From the NCBI GenBank assembly GCA_944389495.1, contig CALXMN010000002.1, positions 18,775 to 82,774 of the forward strand: a stretch of DNA of 64,000 nt, written 5' to 3'. Numbering within the stretch: the stretch's first letter is position 1; every line of letters starts with the position of its first letter. The position numbers and the translations under genes were made by a program. The notes under the pieces are model-generated. The model was not told the origin of the DNA. It did not search any database and saw nothing but the letters and a program-made list of their open reading frames with translations. The stretch comes from an uncultured Alphaproteobacteria bacterium. GTDB lineage: Bacteria > Pseudomonadota > Alphaproteobacteria > Rs-D84. Positions 23,648 to 38,220 of this stretch are shown here, one piece after another.

Positions 23648-25912
23648 ATGCGGGGTATGGCAAGGAAGTCGAATTTTTTCCCGGAAAGTGTTTCAAATGC
23701 TTTAAAGATTTTAATTAAGCGCGTGGCCGGCGGCCTGATGCTGGGGGTGGCGTTATGGGCTTTGGTGGCGTTGTTCTTGTTTGATCCGTATTTGGACGGT
23801 TTTGCCGCGGCAAGTACGTTTGGTAATCAATCCGCTATGGGGCAAATTGTCGGGTTCTTGCGATATGGTATCGGTTTTATTCCGGCGATGTTTTTGATCT
23901 TGTGTTTTGCCCGGTGGGGATTGGCCTGGTTGGCAAATTGGGATGAATATGCCGCACCAGAGTATAATTTAATAAGATGTTTTGTTGCACTGTGCGTTGG
24001 GGCGGCGGGATTTGGTTTAATTGCGCCGGAATCAACGTTTGGCGGAATGATGGGATGTATTGTGGCATCTGATGTCGGTGGAATAATTGGCGGATGGGCT
24101 GTATTGGTTGGAATTGTTGCGCTTGGGATTTTTGCGGTGTTGGGTGCCGTGTTGCTGCATATAAAGTGGGCACATATCAAGGGCGTGGTGCGTATGGGAT
24201 GGCACGGTGTACGTTGGTTATTGTCTGTGTTTCATTTGGTGTCTTTGCCGGTGGCCGCGGATGCGGATGATGCAGATGATGGCGATGAAAACGAAAATGA
24301 ATACGAGGAAGATACAACCGCGGAAGATGCGGTTGAAGATAAGCCTGCGCGTCGTACACGTCGTCGGACAACACGTGCAGTGCGAACCAAGGTGGCCACA
24401 GGTGATTATGAATATGAATTGCCGGACCCCGCGTTTCTGGAGCGGTCCAATTTTGGTAAAAATATCGTAACTCCCGAATTAAAGCGTAATGCGGCCGCAA
24501 TGGAGGTGCATTTTGCCGAATACGGTGTGCACGGACACGTTGTAGGAATACGGCCCGGACCAATTGTGACCCTGTATGAATTTATGCCGGAAAGTGGTGT
24601 GCGTATGGCCGATGTTAGCAAGACTGTAAAAGATATGACACGTGCAATGGCAACGGAAAATATTCGTATTGCGCATATCCCCAGTACACAATTAATTGGT
24701 GTGGAAATGGTTAATATTACCCGCCAGACCGTACGTTTTCAATCATTGGTGGATAATGATACGTTTATAAATTCTAAATATAAAATACCACTTGCGCTGG
24801 GGGTGGATATTGGTGGAAATCCAATGTATTTTGATTTGGCAAAAATGCCGCATATGTTGATTGCAGGACGTACAGGGTCGGGTAAATCTGTGTTTGTGCA
24901 ATCTATTATTATGTCAATTGTGTATCACTTTACACCCGATAAGTGCAAGTTGATTATTATTGACCCCAAGGGGGTTGATTTTGGATTCTGGGATGACATT
25001 CCGCATCTTATAACACCGATTGTAAAGTTAGACGCCGGGGCCGCCGTTAATGCATTGAAATGGGCCGTGCGTGAAATGGAAGAACGGTATAAACAATTAC
25101 AGGTTTTAAATGCAAGAAATATCGAAAGTTATAACGAGATGGCCGCGCAAAAACGCGAAAGCGGTGAAAAAATTACTCGACAAGTGGCCGTTGGCACAGA
25201 TGAAGAAACCGGTGAATTGCTGTTTGAAACGCAAGAGGTTGATTTATCTGATATGCCATATATTGTAATTATTATAGACGAGGTGGCTGATTTAATGAGT
25301 TTGGCCCGTAAAGAGGTTGAGGCCTGTGTCCAACGTATCGCACAAAAGGCCCGTGCGGCGGGTATTCATTTGGTTATGGCAACCCAGCGTCCAGATGCAA
25401 CGACCATCACCGGCGTTATCAAGGCCAATTTCCCAACACGCGTATCGTTCCAGGCACGCAGTGTAATTGATTCGATGACAACGTTGGGCGAAAAAGGGGC
25501 CGAACAATTATTATCCTGTGGCGATATGTTGTTTAGCGAGGCCGGGCGTGTTCCTGTTCGTATACACGGCGCATTTATCTCTGATGAAGAAATGAACAGG
25601 GTTGGCGATTTCCTTAGGGCCCAGGGAGAACCAGAATATGCAGAAGGTGTTACCGATGGTGATGCCGGTACAGATGCAGGGGCGGGGGTAATTCCGGGAT
25701 TGCCGGGGGCGGCACCAACCAAGGCCGATAAAGATGCAGATTTATATACCCAGGCCAAGGAAATAGTTATTCGTGATAAAAAACCGACTATTTCATATAT
25801 CCAGCGACGTTTGGGCGTTGGATATAACAAAGCTGCGGGTTTTATGGAAAGAATGGAGCAAGAGGGCATTGTCAGCCCACCAGATGCAAATAATAAAAGA
25901 CATATATTATAA
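23648..25912 (+). CDS. ftsK: DNA translocase FtsK
   Basis: N-terminal TM domain, an acidic linker, an AAA+ motor with Walker A GRTGSGKSV, and a C-terminal gamma winged-helix domain. Confidence 0.9.
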   Translation: MRGMARKSNFFPESVSNALKILIKRVAGGLMLGVALWALVALFLFDPYLDGFAAASTFGNQSAMGQIVGFLRYGIGFIPAMFLILCFARWGLAWLANWDEYAAPEYNLIRCFVALCVGAAGFGLIAPESTFGGMMGCIVASDVGGIIGGWAVLVGIVALGIFAVLGAVLLHIKWAHIKGVVRMGWHGVRWLLSVFHLVSLPVAADADDADDGDENENEYEEDTTAEDAVEDKPARRTRRRTTRAVRTKVATGDYEYELPDPAFLERSNFGKNIVTPELKRNAAAMEVHFAEYGVHGHVVGIRPGPIVTLYEFMPESGVRMADVSKTVKDMTRAMATENIRIAHIPSTQLIGVEMVNITRQTVRFQSLVDNDTFINSKYKIPLALGVDIGGNPMYFDLAKMPHMLIAGRTGSGKSVFVQSIIMSIVYHFTPDKCKLIIIDPKGVDFGFWDDIPHLITPIVKLDAGAAVNALKWAVREMEERYKQLQVLNARNIESYNEMAAQKRESGEKITRQVAVGTDEETGELLFETQEVDLSDMPYIVIIIDEVADLMSLARKEVEACVQRIAQKARAAGIHLVMATQRPDATTITGVIKANFPTRVSFQARSVIDSMTTLGEKGAEQLLSCGDMLFSEAGRVPVRIHGAFISDEEMNRVGDFLRAQGEPEYAEGVTDGDAGTDAGAGVIPGLPGAAPTKADKDADLYTQAKEIVIRDKKPTISYIQRRLGVGYNKAAGFMERMEQEGIVSPPDANNKRHIL

Positions 25913-29073: not shown

Positions 29074-30353
29074 GACTGTTTGGTGTTAATTTTTTCACGC
29101 AGCATATCCCAGTATTCCAGACGCTTTTTTATTTCGCGTTCAAATCCGCGTTCAATTGGATAATAAAATTTTTGTCGACCCATAGATTCAGGAAAACAAT
29201 TTTGACCCGAAAAGCCAGACGCGGTATCTGGTTCGTAAATATATCCGGCGCCATAGCCCATATCGCGCATCATACGTGTTGGGGCGTTTAATATGTTTTT
29301 GGGGGGTATTAAACTGCCCGTTTCACGGGCGCTTCGATATGCGGTTGTTTGGGCCCGATAATTCGCCGTGCTTTTTGGCGCAGTTCCCAGGTATATTACC
29401 AATTCCGTCAGGGCCAAGTCGCCTTCTGGACTGCCCATACGTTCGTATACCTGCCACGCAGCCAAAGCGATTTGCATAGCGTTCGGATCCGCCAAACCAA
29501 TATCCTCCATCGCGAATCGGGTTAAACGTCGAAAAAGGTACATTGGATCCTGGCCAGAGGTCATCATTCGGGCCGTCCAATACAGGGCCGCGTCCGTATC
29601 GCTGGCGCGCAGTGATTTATGTACCGCAGAAATTAAGTTATAATGTTCGTCGCCTGTTTTATCGGATAATGGTGCGCGCTTTTGAATTGCGGAATCCAAT
29701 GCATCGGGCGATAGTTTCTTTTTAAAATTTGCGTTTGATAAATATTCAATTGTATTTAATAAAAAACGGGCGTCGCCATCCGCCATCTGGGCCAGGTGCA
29801 GGCGCGCCGCATCGTCCAATGGTAATTTTTTATCCAAAAATTTTTCGGCACGTGTTATTAGTGTCATTAAATCTTCGGTTGATAATGGTTGTAATACGCC
29901 AACGTGACAGCGCGACAGTAATGCGTTATTTAAATTAAAACTGGGATTTTCGGTGGTGGCGCCCATAAATACAACGGTTCCATCTTCTAGGTATGGTAAT
30001 AACGTGTCTTGTTGTGTTTTGTTAAATCTGTGTATTTCGTCGATAAATAATAATGTCCCACGGCCGATTTCACGGTTCATACGTGCGGCCTCCATCGCTT
30101 TTTTTATATCTGCCGTGCCCGAAAATACCGCAGACATTGGCACAAAGTCCATATCAACAGATTTTGCCAATGCACGGGCAATTGTGGTCTTGCCACAACC
30201 CGGGGGACCCCATAAGATTAAATTGGATAATTTATGATTGTCAACCATACGACGTACCAGACCGTTTTCACCCAATAATTGAGGCTGGCCCACAATTTCA
30301 TCAATTGTGGCCGGGCGCATTAAATCGGCAAGTGGTCGGGTCTCGGATGACAT
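29070..30353 (-). CDS. rarA: Replication-associated recombination protein A (MgsA/RarA AAA+ ATPase)
   Basis: Walker A LILWGPPGCGKTT, the IHRFNKTQQD sensor, and the RarA C-terminal helical domain. Confidence 0.9.
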   Translation of the reverse strand: MSSETRPLADLMRPATIDEIVGQPQLLGENGLVRRMVDNHKLSNLILWGPPGCGKTTIARALAKSVDMDFVPMSAVFSGTADIKKAMEAARMNREIGRGTLLFIDEIHRFNKTQQDTLLPYLEDGTVVFMGATTENPSFNLNNALLSRCHVGVLQPLSTEDLMTLITRAEKFLDKKLPLDDAARLHLAQMADGDARFLLNTIEYLSNANFKKKLSPDALDSAIQKRAPLSDKTGDEHYNLISAVHKSLRASDTDAALYWTARMMTSGQDPMYLFRRLTRFAMEDIGLADPNAMQIALAAWQVYERMGSPEGDLALTELVIYLGTAPKSTANYRAQTTAYRSARETGSLIPPKNILNAPTRMMRDMGYGAGYIYEPDTASGFSGQNCFPESMGRQKFYYPIERGFEREIKKRLEYWDMLREKINTKQS

Positions 30354-30418
30354 TTTTTATTGTTTTACTTATGTTTTATTTAATCTTTATTTATGATATA
30401 ATAAATTCTAGTAAATTA

Positions 30419-30799
30419 ATGTGGGGTTTTCAATTGGTAAGTGTAAATAAAGATTCGTCGGATTTTACGTTGGCGGTGGCAAATTTGGCCGCGGCCGCAA
30501 TTGCCGCAAATCCAAAGTTAACAATGGAACAGGCCGTGCGCAGCGCACGCGAAAGTTTGCGGGGAACCGCATTAACTGCAACGCAAATTGCCGCGTCTGT
30601 GCGACCAGATAAAATCCAGTGTTTCGAAGACGGAACCTGGCACGTTATGCTGCGGCGATATGTGCGGCGAAAATTTAATATGACGCCAGAACAGTACAGA
30701 GCAAAATGGGGCTTGGCAGATGATTATCCGTTTGTGGCACCGAATTATTCTGTGCGACGTTCAAAAATTGCAAAAAAATCTGGATTGGGTAAAAAATAA
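30419..30799 (+). CDS. mucR: Ros/MucR-family transcriptional regulator
   Basis: C-terminal TPEQYRAKWGLADDYPFVAPNYSVRRSKIAKKSGLGKK is the Ros/MucR signature. The zinc-ligand region (IQCFEDGTWHVMLRRYVRRKF) keeps only part of the Cys/His set. An alternative ATG lies at 30371. The long track ORF from 30053 is an upstream extension antisense to rarA. Confidence 0.75.
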   Translation: MWGFQLVSVNKDSSDFTLAVANLAAAAIAANPKLTMEQAVRSARESLRGTALTATQIAASVRPDKIQCFEDGTWHVMLRRYVRRKFNMTPEQYRAKWGLADDYPFVAPNYSVRRSKIAKKSGLGKK

Positions 30800-30810
30800 A
30801 AAGGGCAATT

Positions 30811-32757
30811 ATGTCTGAAAATTTTAGAAAGATTGTCGCAACGCCGGAACAGGCCGCAAAAAAACTGCGTCAGATAATAGAAAATAAAAGACCAAGCGAA
30901 TATGTTCGGGAACGCAGACGTGAAAAAAATGATGCGGGAATTAAACAAGAAAATCCGGAATTACGTGATGCGGCCGCTATATTTGGCCTGAATGTGGCCA
31001 AGTGGTCGGCGTGGCTGGCCGCGGGGGGAAGTCAATTTTTGTTAACCCTGGCACGGTGGTTGACGATGGATAATCAATTCTTGCGCAAAATGGAAAATAA
31101 ATTTGCCATTATGAATGTGGGTAAAAATAGGCGTGGTAAACCGAAAAAATTATCGTCGTTTGCAAAAAAATATCCTAATTTGTCGGCGCATATTTTGTGG
31201 TTGGTGGGACTGTCGGCGGTGTCGGGTGGTGCATATGTTGTGGCAGAATATGGACCCGATGTGGTGCGCACAGTAAAAGAACAACGTGCAAATCGTGCCG
31301 CAGAACGAGAGGCAGAGAATCAAGCACGTGGAACATATCGGGCGTTTTTGAATAAAATGCGGCCAATAACACCATTTTTAATCGCCGATTTAATTGCCAA
31401 AGAGGGTGTACACGTTGATAAAGAAACTGGTCTGCATACACCGTATCGTGATTCACGAGAGATTCCAACAATTGGCTTTGGGTCAACAATGCTTAAAGAT
31501 GGCAGTAGGGTTACAATGGATACACCGCCCATCACCACAGAAGAAGCATACGAATTGGCGCGGTGGCATCTGGAGGAGGGCGAAACATATTTCGTGTTGT
31601 ATTGTTATGATGTTGCCCAGGATAACGTTGATATTCAATCAACCAGTGAGGCACTGGGGCTTAGTTCCATTGTGTATAATTCTTATTCTAAATTAATAGA
31701 AAACCCGAGTGATAAAAACCATAGAGAACGTTTTAATGTCTTGCGTGATTTGTATGACGCATATGGGTATGCGGTGCCGGACAGTTTGGTGCAACAATGT
31801 TTTGCAGAATATCCTGTGCGTGATGTAACCAGTTTTGGTAACGCGTGGCTGAATAGCGGTGATATTAATGAAATGGCCGATAAATTGGGGGGATTCTTGG
31901 CCGGGGGACGTGGGCTGTATTGGCGGCGCTGGTTAGAGGCGGGCTTGTTAACCGGGGAAATTACACCCCAGATGTTATTAAATTGTCCGGTAAATGGTGT
32001 TTATGAATTTTTTTGCGTTATGGGACAGGAAAGAAGCGCGTTCTTTACCGGCGATATTAATAATCGACGGGTAAATAAACATACGTTTGACGAGTTTAAA
32101 AAATGGTTGGCCAATCCTGTGAATGCCCAGGGGCAAAGTTTGAAAAACTGGCGCAGGGTGGGCGATTATTTACCGCCGGATATATTGGCGTTCTGTCAAA
32201 ACGGAAAATGCGAGTTGAATAACAAGGGGTTTGAAAAAATAACGCGTGCCCACAGTGCCGTTGCCGTTAAAACATATACATTGGGTTATGATGCACAATA
32301 TAAAAAGGCAATTTCTGCATACAAAACCGGCGATTATCGTGCAGCCGTGGCACAGTTTGAAACAATGATTAATTTATATCCAGATAATGCATTATTGCAT
32401 AATGACTTGGCGGCATCGTATAACAAACTGGGGCGTTATGAAGATGCGATAAGGCAGGCGCGTGAAATACTGCACCGGATTGGTGATAAGAGTCAATATG
32501 CCGCCGCACAATATAATGCCGGTTTTGCGTATGAGCAATTGGGCGATTTAACACGTGCTTTGGCAAATTATAAGTTGGCCGTTACAAATGGTAATTTGAT
32601 CGTACGTGATGACGTTTTGCGCGTACAAAAGAAAATAAAATCTGGAAAAACGATTTCGTTTTATGATGCTGCAAAAAAGATGAATGCAGATGATGCGATC
32701 GGGCGTGTGGATAATATAAAACAGGACCAGATAAAAAATAACGAATATTCTGCATAA
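30811..32757 (+). CDS. Membrane-anchored lysozyme-like (GH24 phage-type muramidase fold) protein with C-terminal TPR repeats
   Basis: Internal TM (HILWLVGLSAVSGGAYVV). A GH24-like segment follows: KEGVHVDKETGLHTPYRDSREIPTIGFGST...ITTEEAYELARWHL. The C-terminus carries TPR-like repeats (AISAYKTGDYRAAVAQFE...; YNAGFAYEQLGDLTRALANYKLA). Confidence 0.5.
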   Translation: MSENFRKIVATPEQAAKKLRQIIENKRPSEYVRERRREKNDAGIKQENPELRDAAAIFGLNVAKWSAWLAAGGSQFLLTLARWLTMDNQFLRKMENKFAIMNVGKNRRGKPKKLSSFAKKYPNLSAHILWLVGLSAVSGGAYVVAEYGPDVVRTVKEQRANRAAEREAENQARGTYRAFLNKMRPITPFLIADLIAKEGVHVDKETGLHTPYRDSREIPTIGFGSTMLKDGSRVTMDTPPITTEEAYELARWHLEEGETYFVLYCYDVAQDNVDIQSTSEALGLSSIVYNSYSKLIENPSDKNHRERFNVLRDLYDAYGYAVPDSLVQQCFAEYPVRDVTSFGNAWLNSGDINEMADKLGGFLAGGRGLYWRRWLEAGLLTGEITPQMLLNCPVNGVYEFFCVMGQERSAFFTGDINNRRVNKHTFDEFKKWLANPVNAQGQSLKNWRRVGDYLPPDILAFCQNGKCELNNKGFEKITRAHSAVAVKTYTLGYDAQYKKAISAYKTGDYRAAVAQFETMINLYPDNALLHNDLAASYNKLGRYEDAIRQAREILHRIGDKSQYAAAQYNAGFAYEQLGDLTRALANYKLAVTNGNLIVRDDVLRVQKKIKSGKTISFYDAAKKMNADDAIGRVDNIKQDQIKNNEYSA

Positions 32758-32776: not shown

Positions 32777-34783
32777 ATGAAGGTATATATAAATTATAAT
32801 GATGCGCGGTGGCGGAAATATAAAATCGATTTCGAACAAATTGCAAGTGCGGCAGCCAAAAATCTGGGATCCGATGCCGAGGTTTCAATTGTTCTGACAA
32901 ATGATTCAGAAATTCACAGATTAAATCGTGAATACCGTAACATAGATAAACCAACAAATGTTTTATCGTTCGAATTGGATGATGATATTTTGTTGGGTGA
33001 TATTTATATTTCTTTGGATACGGCCCAGGCCGAGGCAGATGCGGAAAATATATCACTGGCCGATCACGTGGCACATTTGGTGGTGCACGGTATGTTGCAT
33101 CTGCAGGGGTATGATCATATTCGCGACAGTGATGCAATTGTTATGGAAAAGGCCGAGGTTGATATTTTAAAAACATTGGGGATAAAAAATCCCTATGTAC
33201 AGGATTCCGGCGTATACAGCGATTTTTCATCTTGTCCAGGCGACAGATTTTTGTCGCGTATTAAACGTATAAATTTTCGTGAAAATGGTTTTTGGCAATA
33301 TGTTGTGATGGCCCTGTTGGGTGGGGTGGGGGCATTGGGATTTGCACCATACCATTTATGGTGGATGACATTGATTTCAATTGTTGCGGTGTATATGTTG
33401 TCTGTGCGGGCGGCGTCGCGACGACCCGGTATGATTGGTGCCTTTCTGCGTGTTTTACCTTTTTCTGCGGTATATGCCGTTGCGATGTTTTGGTGGGTGA
33501 CGCATTCTATATATGTGGTACCCGAATTAACAAGTCAATTTGCAATATGGACCATTCCTGCATTAATTGGTATAGGTATTGTTGGGGGAATCGTCTTTGC
33601 AATTCCGTTTGTTGTGATTATGCGTATGTGCACGTTTCCGCCGTGTAGACCGTTTTTATTTGCTGCAATGTGGACATTGGTTTTGTGGTTGCGCGAATGG
33701 GTGTTTACGGGGTTCCCGTGGAATCCAATCGCAAATATTACGTTAACTGTGCCGGTAATTTCTAATTCAATGGCTTTGTGGGGGGCACTGGGGTTAACGT
33801 TTGTTGTTATTGGTTTTATGGCGGCATTTTCAGAGTTATTAATGGCGCGAAAAAATAAATATAATTGGATAGTTCTTGGTGTGTTTGCGATTTTGCTGGT
33901 TATTGGTATGATTGCAGGATACAGAAATATTCAATTTGCCCATCTTGTAAATAATGGGACAAGTCCGGTTATTCGTATTGTTCAGCCCGCACAATCGCAA
34001 TCACAAAAAATTGGGGCAACGCGTGCGGATGCCGTTCGTGTCGCAAGTGAAAATGTCCGGAACTTGATTAATTTGGCAAGCGCGCCGGGAAATCCGAATA
34101 TCGTTGTATTTCCAGAAACATCGTACCCATTTGCAATTGTGGATAATGATAATATGCCAATTGCAAATGTGTTGCGACGTAATGTTATAATTGGGGCAAA
34201 TTATTTTTCAGATGGTAAATTATATAATTCTATGGTTGTTGCCGGAACAGATGGCGAAATTGAAAAGATATACAGTAAATCGCATTTGGTCCCGTTTGGG
34301 GAATACAGACCGTTTGGAGATATTATACCCACCCCCGGACAATTGGAGGCCGGCACAGGGGCAGAAATTATTAATGTTGATGGTTTTTCATTTGCACCGG
34401 CAATATGTTATGAGATTATTTTTTCAGATTCTTTGGTTCCGGATAACGAAACACCAGATGCGATAATAAATATTACAAATGATACGTGGTTTGGAAACAC
34501 GCCGGGAACATACCAGCATTTGGATATGGTGCGCCGCTATGCAATCGAATCGGGTTTGCCAATTGTGCGGGCAAATTATTCTGGCATAAGCGCATTTGTG
34601 TCATCAGATGGTGATGTGTTGACACAGATTCCCGTGGCAAATGTTGGATATATGGATGGGGTTGTTTATGGGGCACATATTACACCATATCGAAAAATTG
34701 GCCGTGATGGATGGATGATAATTATATTGTTGTTTTCGTGTATGTGCACGTTTACGCTGCGTAGAGCGATTTTGCATAAATAA
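32777..34783 (+). CDS. lnt: Single ORF encoding the endoribonuclease YbeY domain (aa 1 to about 150) fused in-frame to apolipoprotein N-acyltransferase Lnt (from about aa 178)
   Basis: The YbeY zinc motif HLVVHGMLHLQGYDH is followed without a stop by the Lnt TM region (LLGGVGALGFAPY...) and the CN-hydrolase domain (VFPETS...; ICYEIIF; NITNDTWFG). A possible internal Lnt start is the ATG at 33308. Confidence 0.75.
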   Translation: MKVYINYNDARWRKYKIDFEQIASAAAKNLGSDAEVSIVLTNDSEIHRLNREYRNIDKPTNVLSFELDDDILLGDIYISLDTAQAEADAENISLADHVAHLVVHGMLHLQGYDHIRDSDAIVMEKAEVDILKTLGIKNPYVQDSGVYSDFSSCPGDRFLSRIKRINFRENGFWQYVVMALLGGVGALGFAPYHLWWMTLISIVAVYMLSVRAASRRPGMIGAFLRVLPFSAVYAVAMFWWVTHSIYVVPELTSQFAIWTIPALIGIGIVGGIVFAIPFVVIMRMCTFPPCRPFLFAAMWTLVLWLREWVFTGFPWNPIANITLTVPVISNSMALWGALGLTFVVIGFMAAFSELLMARKNKYNWIVLGVFAILLVIGMIAGYRNIQFAHLVNNGTSPVIRIVQPAQSQSQKIGATRADAVRVASENVRNLINLASAPGNPNIVVFPETSYPFAIVDNDNMPIANVLRRNVIIGANYFSDGKLYNSMVVAGTDGEIEKIYSKSHLVPFGEYRPFGDIIPTPGQLEAGTGAEIINVDGFSFAPAICYEIIFSDSLVPDNETPDAIINITNDTWFGNTPGTYQHLDMVRRYAIESGLPIVRANYSGISAFVSSDGDVLTQIPVANVGYMDGVVYGAHITPYRKIGRDGWMIIILLFSCMCTFTLRRAILHK

Positions 34784-34790
34784 TTTTATG

Positions 34791-35018
34791 CTATAATTGA
34801 CCAAGTGATTTTTTTAAAATCCATACACGAATCGCAGATGATAAATTTGTGTCAGGTGTGCGGTTGTCATCAATATGCTCGATAATCGATGCAATAGATT
34901 TATGCTCGTTGGCTGCGATTTTTCGTAATTGTTGAATAAATTCGTGCTCCAGCGAAATGCTGGTTTGATGCCCCGATAAAGATACAGAAAGTTTTGTCAT
35001 TCTATAATTTTCCCGCAA
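34791..35018 (-). CDS. Ribbon-helix-helix protein, RHH_4 family
   Basis: The sequence LSVSLSGHQTSISLEHEFIQQLRKIAANEHKSIASIIEHID...NLSSAIRVWIL matches the conserved alphaproteobacterial RHH_4 pattern. It overlaps the upstream gene by 17 nt. Confidence 0.6.
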   Translation of the reverse strand: MRENYRMTKLSVSLSGHQTSISLEHEFIQQLRKIAANEHKSIASIIEHIDDNRTPDTNLSSAIRVWILKKSLGQL

Positions 35019-35436
35019 TTAAACAATCGGACATTGCCTGGTATACGTCTTGGTATGTACGCAATGTTTTTAATGTTGTGTTATCAAGCATTAAAAATTT
35101 ACCAAACGTATCAAATGCAAACCAAAACAGGTCGTTTCGACCAAAAACGGTTTTCCCACGTAACTGGGAAATGCCACTTAAATTACGATTGGCTTGTGCC
35201 AGTGATGGAATTGGATATTTGGCACCACGCGATATTTCGTTTGGACCAAAAATATATCCCGAACCTAAATTTATACCGCCACATCCCAGGTAAAAATCAA
35301 TCAGTGATTTCGGCAGAATTGCCGCACGTATTTGCTGTAAAATGGTGTTTGCAAGTGTAATTTCGCGTTCGGTTGCAGGCGGTGCAATTATCGCACCGCG
35401 TTGTGTCATTGAAGATAAAAATTCTGTACAGTTCAT
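35002..35436 (-). CDS. SUKH/SMI1-KNR4-like protein (immunity-protein fold), tentative
   Basis: LPKSLIDFYLGCGGINLGSGYIFGPNEI and the later FAFDTFGKFLMLDNTT resemble the SMI1/KNR4 core motifs. 144 aa, cytoplasmic. Confidence 0.4.
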   Translation of the reverse strand: MNCTEFLSSMTQRGAIIAPPATEREITLANTILQQIRAAILPKSLIDFYLGCGGINLGSGYIFGPNEISRGAKYPIPSLAQANRNLSGISQLRGKTVFGRNDLFWFAFDTFGKFLMLDNTTLKTLRTYQDVYQAMSDCLIAGKL

Positions 35437-35447
35437 TATGCGTGCTA

Positions 35448-35951
35448 TTACATATTGTGACTGTGTTTGATTTGGGCCGCCATCTGACTTAACCGGTCGT
35501 CGGTTGCATTGCCGCCATCACCACCAGATGCATTATGACTTGGTATATATACTTTTTTTGCCGGATTGGGTAACCATACGGTTGGGGCATCGTGTTGTTC
35601 CGCTATGAATATATCCAGGTTATTGGATTGTGGAAATGTCCAACACATAAATAAATTTTCCGTTTCCAATTTACCACCCCATATTAACGGAATACGAAAA
35701 CGAATCGATGTGTTTCGTGGTAATGCGCGACCCATTATAAGTGCCATAAATTCATCCTGGGTCAGGTTCATAAATGCCAGTTCGTTTACCGAATCTGTTA
35801 ACGATTCCATAAATTCGTGACATAATTTTTTATATCTGGAAAACCAATCAGAATCAACACGGCTGGGGCTTGGGCGGAATTCCATTACCGGCATATCGCC
35901 CATATTCATATTGGCCAATCGTGTCTGGGCAGATTCAAGATTCAGTTGCAT
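35448..35951 (-). CDS. Hypothetical protein (167 aa), no recognisable family
   Basis: The start codon overlaps the stop of the upstream gene by 1 nt, and 11 nt separate it from the downstream gene, so it is an operon member. Confidence 0.4.
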   Translation of the reverse strand: MQLNLESAQTRLANMNMGDMPVMEFRPSPSRVDSDWFSRYKKLCHEFMESLTDSVNELAFMNLTQDEFMALIMGRALPRNTSIRFRIPLIWGGKLETENLFMCWTFPQSNNLDIFIAEQHDAPTVWLPNPAKKVYIPSHNASGGDGGNATDDRLSQMAAQIKHSHNM

Positions 35952-36880
35952 CAGATTTTGCCTATGTGTGTTATGACGGCGTCAATGTATTGTGAATACG
36001 CGTCGAACATTCCGTCGTCGTCCGCCGCCAATGGTGGGTTTGGATTTTGTCGGATATATTCGCGAACCTGATCAATGCTGTTAAACATCATTATATCTGT
36101 GAATTCAGATGTTGGCGCATCGGGCGCATTTATGACAAAACCGTTTATTTCTATGCTTGTTTCGTCCAATGTGTCGGAAAATATCTGTTGAAATTTTTCA
36201 ATGATTGTACGTACATCAGTCGTTTTAAGCCCAACGCATCCAATCCACATCGTTTCATTTGCACCAATTGCAATTAATGTCGTTTGTAATGTGCCAATTC
36301 GTGGATTGGGCTTTACAGTGTATCCCGCGGCAATGAATATTTCGCGCAAGGCCGCGGCATCTGCGTCAATGTTATTTGATTGGGGGGGCGGTGATGATGA
36401 TATTCTTTGTGTCGGTTGTGATGATGTATAATTGCCGTTCAAAGTTGGTAATACCAAACGAGGTGGCCGAGCGTTGGCGCCCGGGATAGTCTTTGGGGCC
36501 GATGTTTGTGCCGGGGGTAATTCGGCGGGTAATATATCCAATGTTGACGCGTCGGGGTTTTGGGGTGTGATTGACGGATTGTCGGTGGTTTCCTTGTTAA
36601 TAATATTGGATACGTGCATAATCGGAAGGCGTATTTTTCGCATACGTGGACGCAATATCAGGTACAGACCAAATATTGTTATAAAAATTGTTGTTGCCAC
36701 AGATATGTAAAATCCCGTCTTGATAGGCGTACGTGCGGCCTGCATCGATGCGACATACCCCCAATGTGATGCGGAAAATATGTCAAAACCGAATACCGTA
36801 TTAAACCAAAAGCAGGCACCCAATGTTACGGCCAGTAACCATAATATGCACAATAATATATTATCAAAACGTATTCTCAT
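35951..36880 (-). CDS. Membrane protein: two N-terminal TMs, a Pro/Ser/Thr-rich linker and a C-terminal globular domain of unknown function
   Basis: TMs at about aa 7-26 and 56-76, a low-complexity PxxP/S-rich region at aa 100-180, and a C-terminal domain of about 130 aa. It is the first gene of the minus-strand operon. Confidence 0.5.
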   Translation of the reverse strand: MRIRFDNILLCILWLLAVTLGACFWFNTVFGFDIFSASHWGYVASMQAARTPIKTGFYISVATTIFITIFGLYLILRPRMRKIRLPIMHVSNIINKETTDNPSITPQNPDASTLDILPAELPPAQTSAPKTIPGANARPPRLVLPTLNGNYTSSQPTQRISSSPPPQSNNIDADAAALREIFIAAGYTVKPNPRIGTLQTTLIAIGANETMWIGCVGLKTTDVRTIIEKFQQIFSDTLDETSIEINGFVINAPDAPTSEFTDIMMFNSIDQVREYIRQNPNPPLAADDDGMFDAYSQYIDAVITHIGKI

Positions 36881-36923
36881 TTGATTTCAATTATATCATA
36901 TTTGTGATAAAGTAAAAAGTGCA

Positions 36924-37601
36924 ATGATTGATGTGGATAATATTCTTGAAGTTTTTTCTGGTGGGGCACTGTGGTGCGGGGCGGGCGATGATGCAACTGA
37001 TTTGGCCCAGGCCGCATCAATCGCGTTGGAACGCGGAATAAATACTATATCGGTGGTGCCGGGGGCGGTTGGTATTTTGTGGCCGTGGCTGGAAAATAAA
37101 AATGTACGAATATTGGCGCGGTTTTATCTTAAAAGCGCGGATGTTGCAAATATATCTGATATGGTGGAAAGTATAAATCAGACATTTAAACAGGGGGCGG
37201 ATGGGGCACAAATATTTGTCGATGTACGTGATTTGGACGGGTTCGTTTCACAGTTATATTTAATACGTGATGATCTGTTTTTTAATAAAACGCTTTTTGT
37301 CGGAATGAATATAAGTGAAATAGGGCCGTTTGATTGGCCCCGGATATATGCCGCGTTAAATAAATTGCGGGCGACGGGATTGATATTGGCAATGGTGCGC
37401 GATGATGGTAATGCGTCCGATTTCGTCGGACGGGTATATGCCGCATTGAATGATTGGAAAACAGATTTTGATATGGAATTGGATTTTATCGTTGGAAAAA
37501 ATTTATCAAGAATAGAACAGGTGCAACGTTTAATCCAATCAATGTGTCCAGAATTGGCGTCGCGTGTAAGATTTTTTATTAATCCCCAGACGCGCGGATA
37601 A
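36924..37601 (+). CDS. Hypothetical protein (225 aa); weak resemblance to a DeoC-type aldolase TIM barrel without the Schiff-base Lys
   Basis: Divergent from 35951..36880 with only 43 bp between the start codons. The segment GINTISVVPGAVGILW...QGADGAQIFVDV is loosely DeoC-like. Confidence 0.4.
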   Translation: MIDVDNILEVFSGGALWCGAGDDATDLAQAASIALERGINTISVVPGAVGILWPWLENKNVRILARFYLKSADVANISDMVESINQTFKQGADGAQIFVDVRDLDGFVSQLYLIRDDLFFNKTLFVGMNISEIGPFDWPRIYAALNKLRATGLILAMVRDDGNASDFVGRVYAALNDWKTDFDMELDFIVGKNLSRIEQVQRLIQSMCPELASRVRFFINPQTRG

Positions 37602-38220
37602 TCATATATTTCGGTGTCGTTGTGCCGGCCTTGTTCTTTTGTTGATAGCGTGTGTGAATTGTCTGTATGTCGGGCGTATGTGCATCCAGCGCGGTTTTTG
37701 TTACCTGGTTTTGAATCCATTCAAAATATTCCCAGTGGTCTGTGCCAATTATAATTTCGCCGGATTTGGTTAAATGTGATGCCAACATTTTTATAAAATC
37801 GGCTTGTAATAAACGACGTTTTTCGTGTCGTGACTTGGGCCAGGGGTCGGGATGCAGAATCCAAATTTGTTCAAATTTCGAATCGGTTTGGCGTAAAAAA
37901 TCACGTACGTCATCGGCAAAAATTCTGATGTTTTTATATTCGTTGCGAATCGCACCTGTGTCATCCGTTATGGCGGACAACAGTGATGCAACACCGTTCA
38001 TAAATGGTTCTGCACCAATCACTGTTTTATCCGGGTTTTGCCGGGCAATTTCACGTAAATGTTCGCCCGCACCAAAACCAATTTCCAATATTTTACCGGT
38101 TTTTCCCGGTAAATCATTTGGAAAAATTGTCGGTAAAATGGCGTCAATCAGCATCGTTTGACGGGCGGACAGTTTCTTGCCGTGACGGCGGCCAAATGTT
38201 CTTATTTCTTGTTTTTCCAT
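37579..38220 (-). CDS. trmB: tRNA (guanine46-N7)-methyltransferase
   Basis: The SAM-binding ILEIGFGAGEHL motif, and a TrmB-like length and C-terminus. Confidence 0.85.
   Translation of the reverse strand: MEKQEIRTFGRRHGKKLSARQTMLIDAILPTIFPNDLPGKTGKILEIGFGAGEHLREIARQNPDKTVIGAEPFMNGVASLLSAITDDTGAIRNEYKNIRIFADDVRDFLRQTDSKFEQIWILHPDPWPKSRHEKRRLLQADFIKMLASHLTKSGEIIIGTDHWEYFEWIQNQVTKTALDAHTPDIQTIHTRYQQKNKAGTTTPKYMIIRASGD

Follow-up and report, generated by a model that had tools for sequence, protein, structure and literature searches.

A 64-kb stretch of contig CALXMN010000002.1 (64,000 nucleotides, hereafter the window), from an uncultured alphaproteobacterium of the Rs-D84 lineage, contains a compact cluster of five genes at positions 34791-37601. 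Four of them lie on the minus strand and encode, in order of transcription, proteins of 309, 167 and 144 residues (p309, p167 and p144) and a small protein of the RHH_4 family (RHH); the fifth is transcribed divergently and encodes a protein of 225 residues (p225). We consider it probable that the cluster is a vertically inherited module of the gut bacterium Candidatus Enterousia that derives from a toxin/immunity-type ancestor, formerly coupled to a type IV secretion system (T4SS), and that it has been retained in a non-nucleolytic form. Its parts have a well-supported identity and ancestry, which cannot be said of a present cellular function. A preliminary description of this DNA had proposed a toxin/immunity or envelope-signalling module, in a gene combination that it took to be undescribed, and indeed no such description was found in our literature search. 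Its toxin/immunity interpretation is partly supported here: the ancestry holds, as does the presence of a toxin/immunity-type pair with a small DNA-binding protein, whereas an active nuclease toxin is unlikely, the conserved histidines having been replaced.

Enterousia has been assigned to the order Rs-D84, with genomes smaller than 1 Mb (PMC12306168). Scanning a single genome for each GTDB species revealed 151 that encode p167, and 80 of these were kept for analysis. They are metagenome-assembled genomes (MAGs) named Candidatus Enterousia, Alphaproteobacteria or Rickettsiales bacterium, and include closed chromosomes of 0.72 and 0.96 Mb. In all 80 species representatives the five genes are linked in the same order and orientation, with p225 on one strand and p309, p167, p144 and RHH on the other, and the cluster is nearly always flanked by trmB and ybeY-lnt; this arrangement is far beyond chance. 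The junctions recur as well, with p309 and p167 overlapping at -1 in 59 of 77 genomes and the divergent spacer measuring 42-44 nt in 68 of 77. Metagenome contigs co-linear with the window encode near-identical proteins (99-100% identity), and a distant contig named 'Rickettsiales bacterium' (L086) carries the full Enterousia-type five-gene cluster beside ybeY-lnt, with a different gene content on the other flank.

The proteins themselves are conserved to a similar degree as their neighbours. Median identity to the window is 66% for RHH, 63% for p167, 57% for p144, 46% for p225 and 45% for p309, compared with 77% for gltX, 70% for trmB and 58% for ybeY-lnt. A total of 481 relatives of p167 were found at 60-77% identity; across the 80 species the protein is 56-77% identical, single copy and fixed in position, and p309 is kept in 78 of the 80 genomes at a coverage of at least 70%. 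All four operon proteins show purifying selection comparable to that on the adjoining housekeeping genes. The G+C content of the cluster (0.38-0.46) is like that of its flanks, with no compositional anomaly. Horizontal insertion of the cluster, the picture given by the preliminary description of genes 'inserted' between lnt and trmB, is ruled out by this flat composition together with synteny in 80 of 80 genomes across the lineage. Nor are the genes polymorphic or mobile: they are as conserved as trmB and lnt, and neither polymorphism of p167, extra immunity copies nor a mobile-element signature was seen at the Enterousia loci of the 80 genomes. The five genes thus constitute a core, vertically inherited lineage cluster, neither an insertion nor a polymorphic cassette.

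Three of the products, p167, p309 and p225, are named 'hypothetical protein' in those sources that name them, and gave no match in Pfam, NCBIfam, PHROGs or PADLOC. For p167, an alignment of orthologues compared with PDB sequences gave nothing significant, and a Foldseek search against the PDB gave no significant match. The alignment does reveal two strong motifs, RFRxPLxWGGKLExxNLFMCxTFPxS and an invariant tail, GGDGGNATxDRLSQ. When 1.84 billion representatives were searched exhaustively with a profile, 76 relatives of p167 emerged, the distant ones among them being proteins of 180-433 residues with an MWDWSG start, a Pro/Gln-rich low-complexity stretch and a C-terminal p167-type domain with the motif NVHLKIPxEYGGTNDFSNLxLIQTHPYHxxIHxF. 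Ten of these distant relatives were examined with Pfam, XVIPCD included, and nothing was found.

The distant clade provides the link to a named family. Comparison of the Enterousia p167 profile (A1) with the profile of the distant clade (A6) gave a probability of 98.6 with E 6.9e-16 over 146 columns, and A6 in turn matched the C-terminal domain of Escherichia coli YhhZ with a probability of 98.6 and E 7.4e-16 over 132 columns; a single relative, P0170, is 31% identical to YhhZ by BLASTP (E 3e-14). In E. coli K-12 YhhZ (L116, 3581863-3584309) is annotated as a 'putative endonuclease' and is an Hcp/TssD fusion (T6SS_HCP) with a weak Pfam HNH match. It forms group 32 of the His-Me finger proteins and is a predicted type VI secretion system (T6SS) nuclease effector (Jablonska et al. 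2017, PMC5714182). Hcp-ET1, an Hcp-HNH-DNase effector, kills bacteria in a T6SS-dependent manner according to a review (PMC6730261). By this chain of profiles p167 is homologous to the YhhZ C-terminal His-Me (HNH) domain, and its beta-beta-alpha core has the conserved Asn and GG turn expected of that superfamily. Neither a trafficking domain nor a signal peptide was found on p167, which consists of the domain alone.

What p167 does not have are the histidines. Columns 84, 109 and 113 are His in 55, 45 and 46 of 79 relatives, these being the VirD4-linked clade described below, and Arg, Ser and Asp in Enterousia. Among 30 aligned Enterousia orthologues R84 and D113 are invariant and S109 is present in at least 90%. 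The VirD4-linked relatives keep an H...N...HxxxH constellation, while several lineages besides Enterousia also carry non-His residues at the three columns in the same tabulation. Residues N99, P88, G92-G93, P107, Q119 and the GG..DR tail are universal in all 79. In the alignment with YhhZ, strand 1 has an HH (NVHHK) and there is one His (PYH) where the helix begins; the second helix His is not aligned. The profile chain to YhhZ and the replaced His columns together lead us to regard p167 as a YhhZ-type His-Me domain from which the conserved histidines have been lost. Because the three histidines are replaced in every Enterousia orthologue, p167 is unlikely to be an active nuclease toxin.

The partner gene tells a parallel story. 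In E. coli K-12 yrhA lies directly downstream of yhhZ, overlapping its end, and is split by IS1E; likewise, wherever a related locus extends far enough, a gene for 140-158 residues lies downstream of its p167-like gene. Against the NCBIfam YrhA family (NF038335) p144 aligns over residues 6-136 with E 2.4e-8 and 34 bits, below the cut-off of 55 bits. The same model matches 34 of 41 p144 orthologues below the cut-off (best E 6.9e-11), two p144-like proteins tested from sister clades pass it with 61.5 and 77.8 bits, and the first fragment of E. coli YrhA scores 82 bits. A hidden Markov model (HMM) built from Enterousia p144 recovers the sister-clade homologues with E values of 5e-14 to 4e-5. Since p144 falls below the curated cut-off while its sister-clade homologues pass, it is best described as a divergent relative of the YrhA family that does not qualify for membership under the curated rule; what ties it to the family is the NCBIfam model together with the sister-clade homologues. 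A YhhZ-type p167, a YrhA-related p144 and the shared adjacency of their genes point to p167 and p144 as a pair of the YhhZ C-terminal/YrhA type.

In the preliminary description p144 had been likened to the SUKH (SMI1/KNR4) fold. Pfam SMI1_KNR4 and SUKH_6 gave sub-threshold matches only (E 0.006-0.02; 17.7 bits against a gathering threshold of 25.4, and 15.8 against 27), and models of the SUKH superfamily (SMI1_KNR4, SUKH_5 and SUKH_6 in Pfam) reached E <0.1 in only 5 of 41 orthologues. Weak SUKH matches do recur in distant p144 homologues, and the p144 profile found nothing among PDB sequences. A SUKH-like p144 is plausible but unproven on these scores.

For p309 the AlphaFold2 model (pLDDT 80.4) agrees with the architecture originally proposed: two transmembrane helices, a disordered linker rich in Pro, Ser and Thr, and a folded C-terminal domain. 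The transmembrane hairpin has a median identity of 60% across species, and its short loop helix, FGF(N/D)IFSxxHW, is highly conserved. Directly after the second transmembrane helix comes a basic stretch, RPRMRKIRLP; by the positive-inside rule this places the C-terminal domain probably in the cytoplasm, with both termini inside. The linker has pLDDT values mostly of 42-58 (67 at its start), a median identity of 24% and a length of 67-126 residues across species, with R138 and P139 invariant. The C-terminal domain, with pLDDT >90 and a median identity of 53%, is the opposite of the variable domain that had been supposed, variability residing instead in the linker. A variable C-terminal toxin tip on p309 is ruled out by this comparison, and the toxin-like partner is p167 and not the conserved, probably cytoplasmic, domain of the membrane protein.

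The NERD domain (nuclease-related domain, PF08378) has been placed in the PD-(D/E)xK restriction-endonuclease fold, and the p309 C-terminal domain has the alpha-beta-beta-beta-alpha-beta arrangement of restriction-endonuclease-like proteins. The window protein itself has no Pfam match, and the profile of its orthologues found nothing significant among PDB sequences. Relatives of p309 with a hairpin of 25-30 residues give sub-threshold Pfam NERD matches over almost the full model (L086, E 0.016; L099, E 0.001), with 16-20 bits against a cut-off of 22.1. The divergent orthologues L077:8935-9924 and L086:7000-8001 keep this insertion (for example GGEITANEGGESKWTFGGRDFTSPVWKV), which corresponds to the NERD hairpin and has been deleted in most Enterousia orthologues. 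The catalytic D...ExK motif is absent from the alignment: there is no conserved Asp on strand 2, and E209, though invariant, is followed by x-[M/L] and not by Lys. We regard p309 as a membrane-anchored protein of the restriction-endonuclease fold, NERD-like, and a pseudo-nuclease.

The connection to secretion comes from sister clades. Context look-ups and a metagenome scan seeded with a 10-sequence subset of the distant p167 relatives yielded 31 loci (L085-L115), whose genes we labelled c4 (p309-like), c0 (p167-like) and c1 (YrhA-like). At least 18 of them show the succession p309-like, as one gene or two tandem paralogues, then VirD4, p167-like and YrhA-like, followed by DUF1189 on the opposite strand. 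VirD4 is firmly identified (PF02534, E 1e-41, with TraG-D_C and TrwB_AAD_bind as well), and a TrbL/VirB6-like gene lies close by in several loci (E 5.7e-7). HMMs built from Enterousia sequences alone recover all three partners, the p309-like proteins with a best E of 4.6e-10 and the p167-like proteins with about 1e-13 to 1e-16 in most loci. The named hosts are uncultured Alphaproteobacteria MAGs, and the neighbours of the VirD4 loci are housekeeping genes (cysS, pyrG, pckG, uvrC and infB). RHH_4 and p225 were absent from the VirD4-linked loci in an HMM search. Three loci, L091-L093, have the p167/YrhA-like pair alone; no VirD4 and no p309-like gene is present in their DNA (L091 covers 10 kb upstream and 6.6 kb downstream). 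A tblastn search of the window, and of 10 kb around the cluster in each of the 80 Enterousia loci, gave no homologue of VirD4, VirB6, c6 or DUF1189 (c3).

Several p167-like proteins of these loci (L099:9518-10582, L106:9482-10543, P0166, P0171 and P0183) start with MWDWSG, continue with 100-250 residues rich in Pro, Gln and Tyr, and end in a basic ...KSMxGR C-terminus which, in its residues, resembles the charged C-terminal signal of T4SS substrates. Other conserved genes surround the VirD4 module (L099:2424-3449, L099:3550-4719, L099:11064-11846 and their equivalents in L096-L109): c6, with a Pro-rich N-terminus and no Pfam match, c11/c12, which are Lys/Glu-rich, and one or two DUF1189 membrane proteins encoded on the other strand.

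Of the two genes peculiar to the Enterousia arrangement, RHH is the better defined. Its assignment to RHH_4, already made in the preliminary description, is borne out by Pfam PF13467 with E 2.5e-20 and 72.7 bits against a cut-off of 25, residues 9-69 matching model positions 3-65 of 67. A single PDB sequence match was weak and to an uncharacterised protein (3kk4, BP1543, E 0.07). p225 occurs in every Enterousia-type cluster, that of the distant L086 among them (E 1.5e-39); its profile of 39 sequences found no match among PDB sequences. Between p309 and p225, an alignment of the spacer from 75 genomes gave the near-invariant consensus CTTTTTACTTTATCAyAAATATGATAyAATtAAAa.cAAATG. Read on the p309 strand it contains an extended -10 element, TGATATAAT, whose end lies some 9 nt ahead of the p309 ATG; no Shine-Dalgarno sequence is present. 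This position of the -10 element, together with the missing Shine-Dalgarno sequence, suggests that the p309 mRNA is leaderless or nearly so, an arrangement that would be conserved in the 75 genomes. An inverted repeat, TATCA-N6-TGATA, overlaps the -10 element. A generic promoter scan was at background, with 14 sites against 13.3 expected, and we treat the promoter and operator roles of the spacer, and binding of RHH there, as predictions.

Put together, these observations suggest the following course. The ancestral module would have comprised a YhhZ-type His-Me effector, a YrhA-type partner and transmembrane NERD-like proteins, coupled to VirD4. In the line leading to Enterousia VirD4 would have disappeared from the locus and the nuclease residues would have been lost, while the RHH_4 gene and the divergent p225 gene joined the cluster. 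In its present form p167 would no longer cleave DNA and may still heterodimerise with its YrhA-type partner p144, the pair acting together with the tethered NERD-like domain on the cytoplasmic side of the inner membrane. RHH could autoregulate the operon, and perhaps the p225 gene too, through the conserved inverted repeat over the -10 element. The retained immunity-type partner may in addition protect against active toxin relatives from VirD4-bearing Alphaproteobacteria, which occur in similar gut and rumen samples.

Several observations weigh against this account. Compared directly, A1 and YhhZ give E 0.098 only, and the window p144 is under the YrhA-family cut-off; an hhalign comparison of the Enterousia p144 profile with the first fragment of E. 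coli YrhA found no match (probability 0.2), and that fragment has no Pfam SUKH match. YhhZ/YrhA is itself a putative toxin/immunity pair, and interaction of the four proteins is suggested by gene order and by analogy with toxin/immunity pairs. The VirD4 negative covers the window and 10 kb around the 80 loci, and a VirD4 may lie elsewhere in Enterousia genomes; in the course of evolution VirD4 may have been lost or gained. The 225-aa gene has no explanation in the account, and the conservation of the divergent spacer (majority fraction 0.87 versus 0.78 for the control trmB/GNAT divergent spacer) is a modest excess. Finally, these reduced genomes have kept a dead toxin at about 63% identity, its tail invariant, which suggests some positive function left unnamed in the account.

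A more far-reaching version, less likely than not, is put forward tentatively. Here the triad of p309-, p167- and YrhA-like proteins would be a hitherto undescribed VirD4-coupled effector-immunity (or adaptor) system of uncultured gut Alphaproteobacteria, and Enterousia, after secretion was lost, would have domesticated the catalytically dead toxin, the immunity protein and the membrane pseudo-nuclease into a new, near-essential function under RHH_4 control. If true, the toxin family, for which Hcp fusions of the T6SS have been the one known form, would also be a T4SS cargo.

A different use of the same sister-clade evidence is to suppose that the proteins are accessory subunits or adaptors still at work in a type IV coupling complex, with a role, though not a sequence, like that of DotM/DotN/IcmSW at DotL, and with Enterousia using a VirD4 or other FtsK-like ATPase encoded elsewhere. 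In at least 18 chromosomal loci with housekeeping neighbours the three genes flank VirD4, strictly ordered and in single copy, a pattern that fits machinery better than polymorphic effectors; the histidines are missing in many lineages, and therefore catalysis would be dispensable for the conserved role; the GG..DR tail motif is universal; and the window contains an FtsK gene (23648-25912). This reading nevertheless has to contend with a 64-kb window, and 10-kb surroundings of the cluster in 80 genomes, that contain no VirD4, VirB6 or other T4SS gene, with a published survey of Enterousia genomes that mentions no secretion system, with the effector/immunity origin indicated by YhhZ C-terminal/YrhA homology, and with L091-L093, where the pair occurs without VirD4 or a p309-like gene in the available flanks. 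We judge it unlikely.

Still less probable in our view is an active toxin/immunity or toxin-antitoxin-like addiction module, in which p167 (or the p309 C-terminal domain) would be toxic without histidines, p144 would neutralise it and RHH_4 would repress the operon, the whole persisting because it is unsafe to lose. The order of toxin-type gene, immunity-type gene and RHH regulator, with overlapping or abutting open reading frames (ORFs), does resemble toxin-antitoxin and toxin/immunity operons; that both partners are conserved agrees with co-dependence; and the invariant R84, D113, Q119 and tail residues could form a different active site. Set against this are the replacement of all three conserved histidines, a NERD-like domain without D...ExK, a p167 without trafficking domain or signal peptide, the lack of polymorphism, extra immunity copies or a mobile-element signature, and a PADLOC scan that finds nothing. 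Least probable of all, and very doubtful, is an envelope-signalling module, an idea raised in the preliminary description. As we frame it, the loop of the transmembrane hairpin would sense an envelope cue relayed through the cytoplasmic domain and a p167/p144 partner switch to RHH_4: the external loop FGF(N/D)IFSxxHW is highly conserved, a DNA-binding protein is encoded on the same transcript and conservation extends to the divergent promoter region, but the loop has only about 25 residues, scans of family libraries found no sensor, kinase, anti-sigma or other signalling domain in any of the proteins, the sister-clade counterparts adjoin VirD4 and lack RHH_4, and beyond the hairpin itself nothing speaks in its favour.

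Table 1. Features of the five-gene cluster, in window coordinates.
Feature	Coordinates	Strand	Remarks
RHH_4 gene, last in operon	34791-35018	-	75 aa from TTG at 35018, more likely 69 aa from ATG at 35000
p144, YrhA-family relative, putative immunity-type partner of p167	35002-35436	-	
p167, YhhZ C-terminal type	35448-35951	-	N-terminal helices, degenerate His-Me/HNH core, invariant GGDGGNATxDRLSQ tail
p167 beta-beta-alpha core	35595-35720	-	aa 78-119: PRNTSIRFRIPLIWGGKLETENLFMCWTFPQSNNLDIFIAEQ; R84, S109, D113 where relatives carry His
p309 membrane protein, first in operon	35951-36880	-	
p309 transmembrane hairpin	36641-36880	-	aa 1-80; helices 2-30 and 55-76
p309 disordered Pro/Ser/Thr/Asn-rich linker	36371-36640	-	aa 81-170; one conserved RPPRL motif
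p309 C-terminal domain	35954-36370	-	aa 171-309; restriction-endonuclease (PD-(D/E)xK) fold, NERD-like, without catalytic motif
Divergent spacer, putative promoter/operator region	36881-36923	.	43 nt between start codons
p225, divergently transcribed	36924-37601	+	

The five ORFs of the preliminary description were all reproduced at its coordinates (Table 1), as were the 1-nt overlap of p309 and p167 (ATGA, at 35951), the 11-nt gap between p167 and p144 (35437-35447) and the 43-nt divergent spacer. Its 17-nt overlap of RHH and p144 (35002/35018) is present in the ORF list and requires a TTG start; public gene calls on identical contigs begin RHH at an ATG six codons downstream, giving 69 residues and a 1-nt gap, and these calls, with the RHH_4 match from residue 9, favour the ATG. 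At the other end the 3' ends of p225 (+) and trmB (-) converge in a 23-nt overlap (37579-37601), trmB occupying 37579-38220. The flank beyond RHH is a ybeY-lnt fusion: ybeY (endoribonuclease) and lnt (apolipoprotein N-acyltransferase) form one ORF of 668 residues at 32777-34783 (+), with Pfam YbeY at residues 15-133 followed by LNT_N and CN_hydrolase. Gene calls on the public contigs L001 and L002 likewise give a YbeY+Lnt protein, as does the distant L086 (596 residues), and tblastn gave near-full-length ybeY-lnt matches, mostly of 1.9-2.0 kb, in the fetched Enterousia genomes, the exceptions being truncations at contig ends and two loci with no match.

Upstream of this fusion, 30811-32757 (+) encodes a 648-residue protein with a hydrophobic segment, C-terminal tetratricopeptide (TPR) repeats and a weak phage-lysozyme/endolysin-like stretch at residues 209-260 (Pfam E 3e-4; PHROG endolysin E 7e-7); it is possible that this TPR/lysozyme-like protein is a peptidoglycan-remodelling factor. 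Just upstream of it, at about 30419-30799 (+), lies a gene for a MucR/Ros-type zinc-finger regulator (PF05443), 126 residues long in the public gene call and given a longer frame of 248 residues, 30053-30799, in the six-frame list. An Rfam scan of the window found two tRNAs only, neither close to the cluster.

The analysis turns three 'hypothetical' proteins, without a Pfam family and conserved across at least 150 species-level genomes, into testable candidates: an HNH pseudo-nuclease, an immunity-type partner and a membrane-tethered pseudo-nuclease of the restriction-endonuclease fold. It also ties the YhhZ/YrhA family, seen so far as an enterobacterial T6SS Hcp fusion, to VirD4, which suggests T4SS-associated cargo or adaptors of a new class. 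The Enterousia cluster offers a natural example of a toxin/immunity-type pair whose catalytic residues have been lost and which is nonetheless under strong purifying selection in genomes below 1 Mb, and so bears on the domestication of conflict systems; should the immunity-type partner protect against relatives in the same gut habitat, it would bear on interbacterial defence in the animal gut as well. Our literature searches found no link of YhhZ/YrhA-type pairs or NERD-like membrane proteins to VirD4, and nothing relevant on YrhA with SUKH, on the NERD domain with a coupling protein, or on the function of RHH_4/PF13467.

Among known systems the closest is YhhZ/YrhA of E. coli. As there, the p167-type domain, homologous through the two steps A1-A6 and A6-YhhZ, is encoded directly upstream of a protein that aligns with the same NCBIfam model, NF038335. 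It differs in that p167 is a stand-alone protein of 167 residues without an Hcp domain, its three histidines are changed to Arg, Ser and Asp and it has the extra invariant GGDGGNATxDRLSQ tail; its partner scores 34 bits where the family requires 55; and the Enterousia genes are core and syntenic, outside any T6SS context.

Polymorphic toxin systems with SUKH immunity proteins were reportedly described by Zhang, Iyer and Aravind in 2011/2012. The cluster shares with such systems a His-Me nuclease-type domain followed by a small immunity-type gene, and a single toxin domain in varied delivery contexts, with Hcp in E. coli and with a VirD4-linked MWDWSG and Pro/Gln-rich N-terminus in alphaproteobacterial MAGs. 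Unlike them, the window locus shows no polymorphism, toxin-tip arrays or orphan immunities, p167 has no trafficking domain, and SUKH membership of p144 is not demonstrated. Such systems are represented by groups 4/11 in PMC5714182.

For the T4SS, Xanthomonadales have antibacterial effector/immunity pairs, X-Tfe/X-Tfi, which VirD4 recognises through the XVIPCD (PMC8740702, PMC6759196). In the sister clades, similarly, a putative toxin gene and an immunity-type partner adjoin VirD4; unlike X-Tfe/X-Tfi they have no XVIPCD detectable by Pfam, belong to a different toxin family and have two transmembrane NERD-like genes beside VirD4, and the window locus itself has no VirD4. With respect to NERD proteins, p309 lacks the conserved catalytic Asp and ExK, has lost the central hairpin in most Enterousia, carries its domain on a transmembrane hairpin through a disordered Pro-rich linker and, in the window, goes without a Pfam match. 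RHH, for its part, is like RHH_4 over its full length and well above the gathering score, and is set apart from the family background by its putative role as autoregulator of this operon. Each of these folds is known; what is new is their combination, the linkage to VirD4 in the sister clades, and the degenerate yet conserved state of the module in Enterousia.

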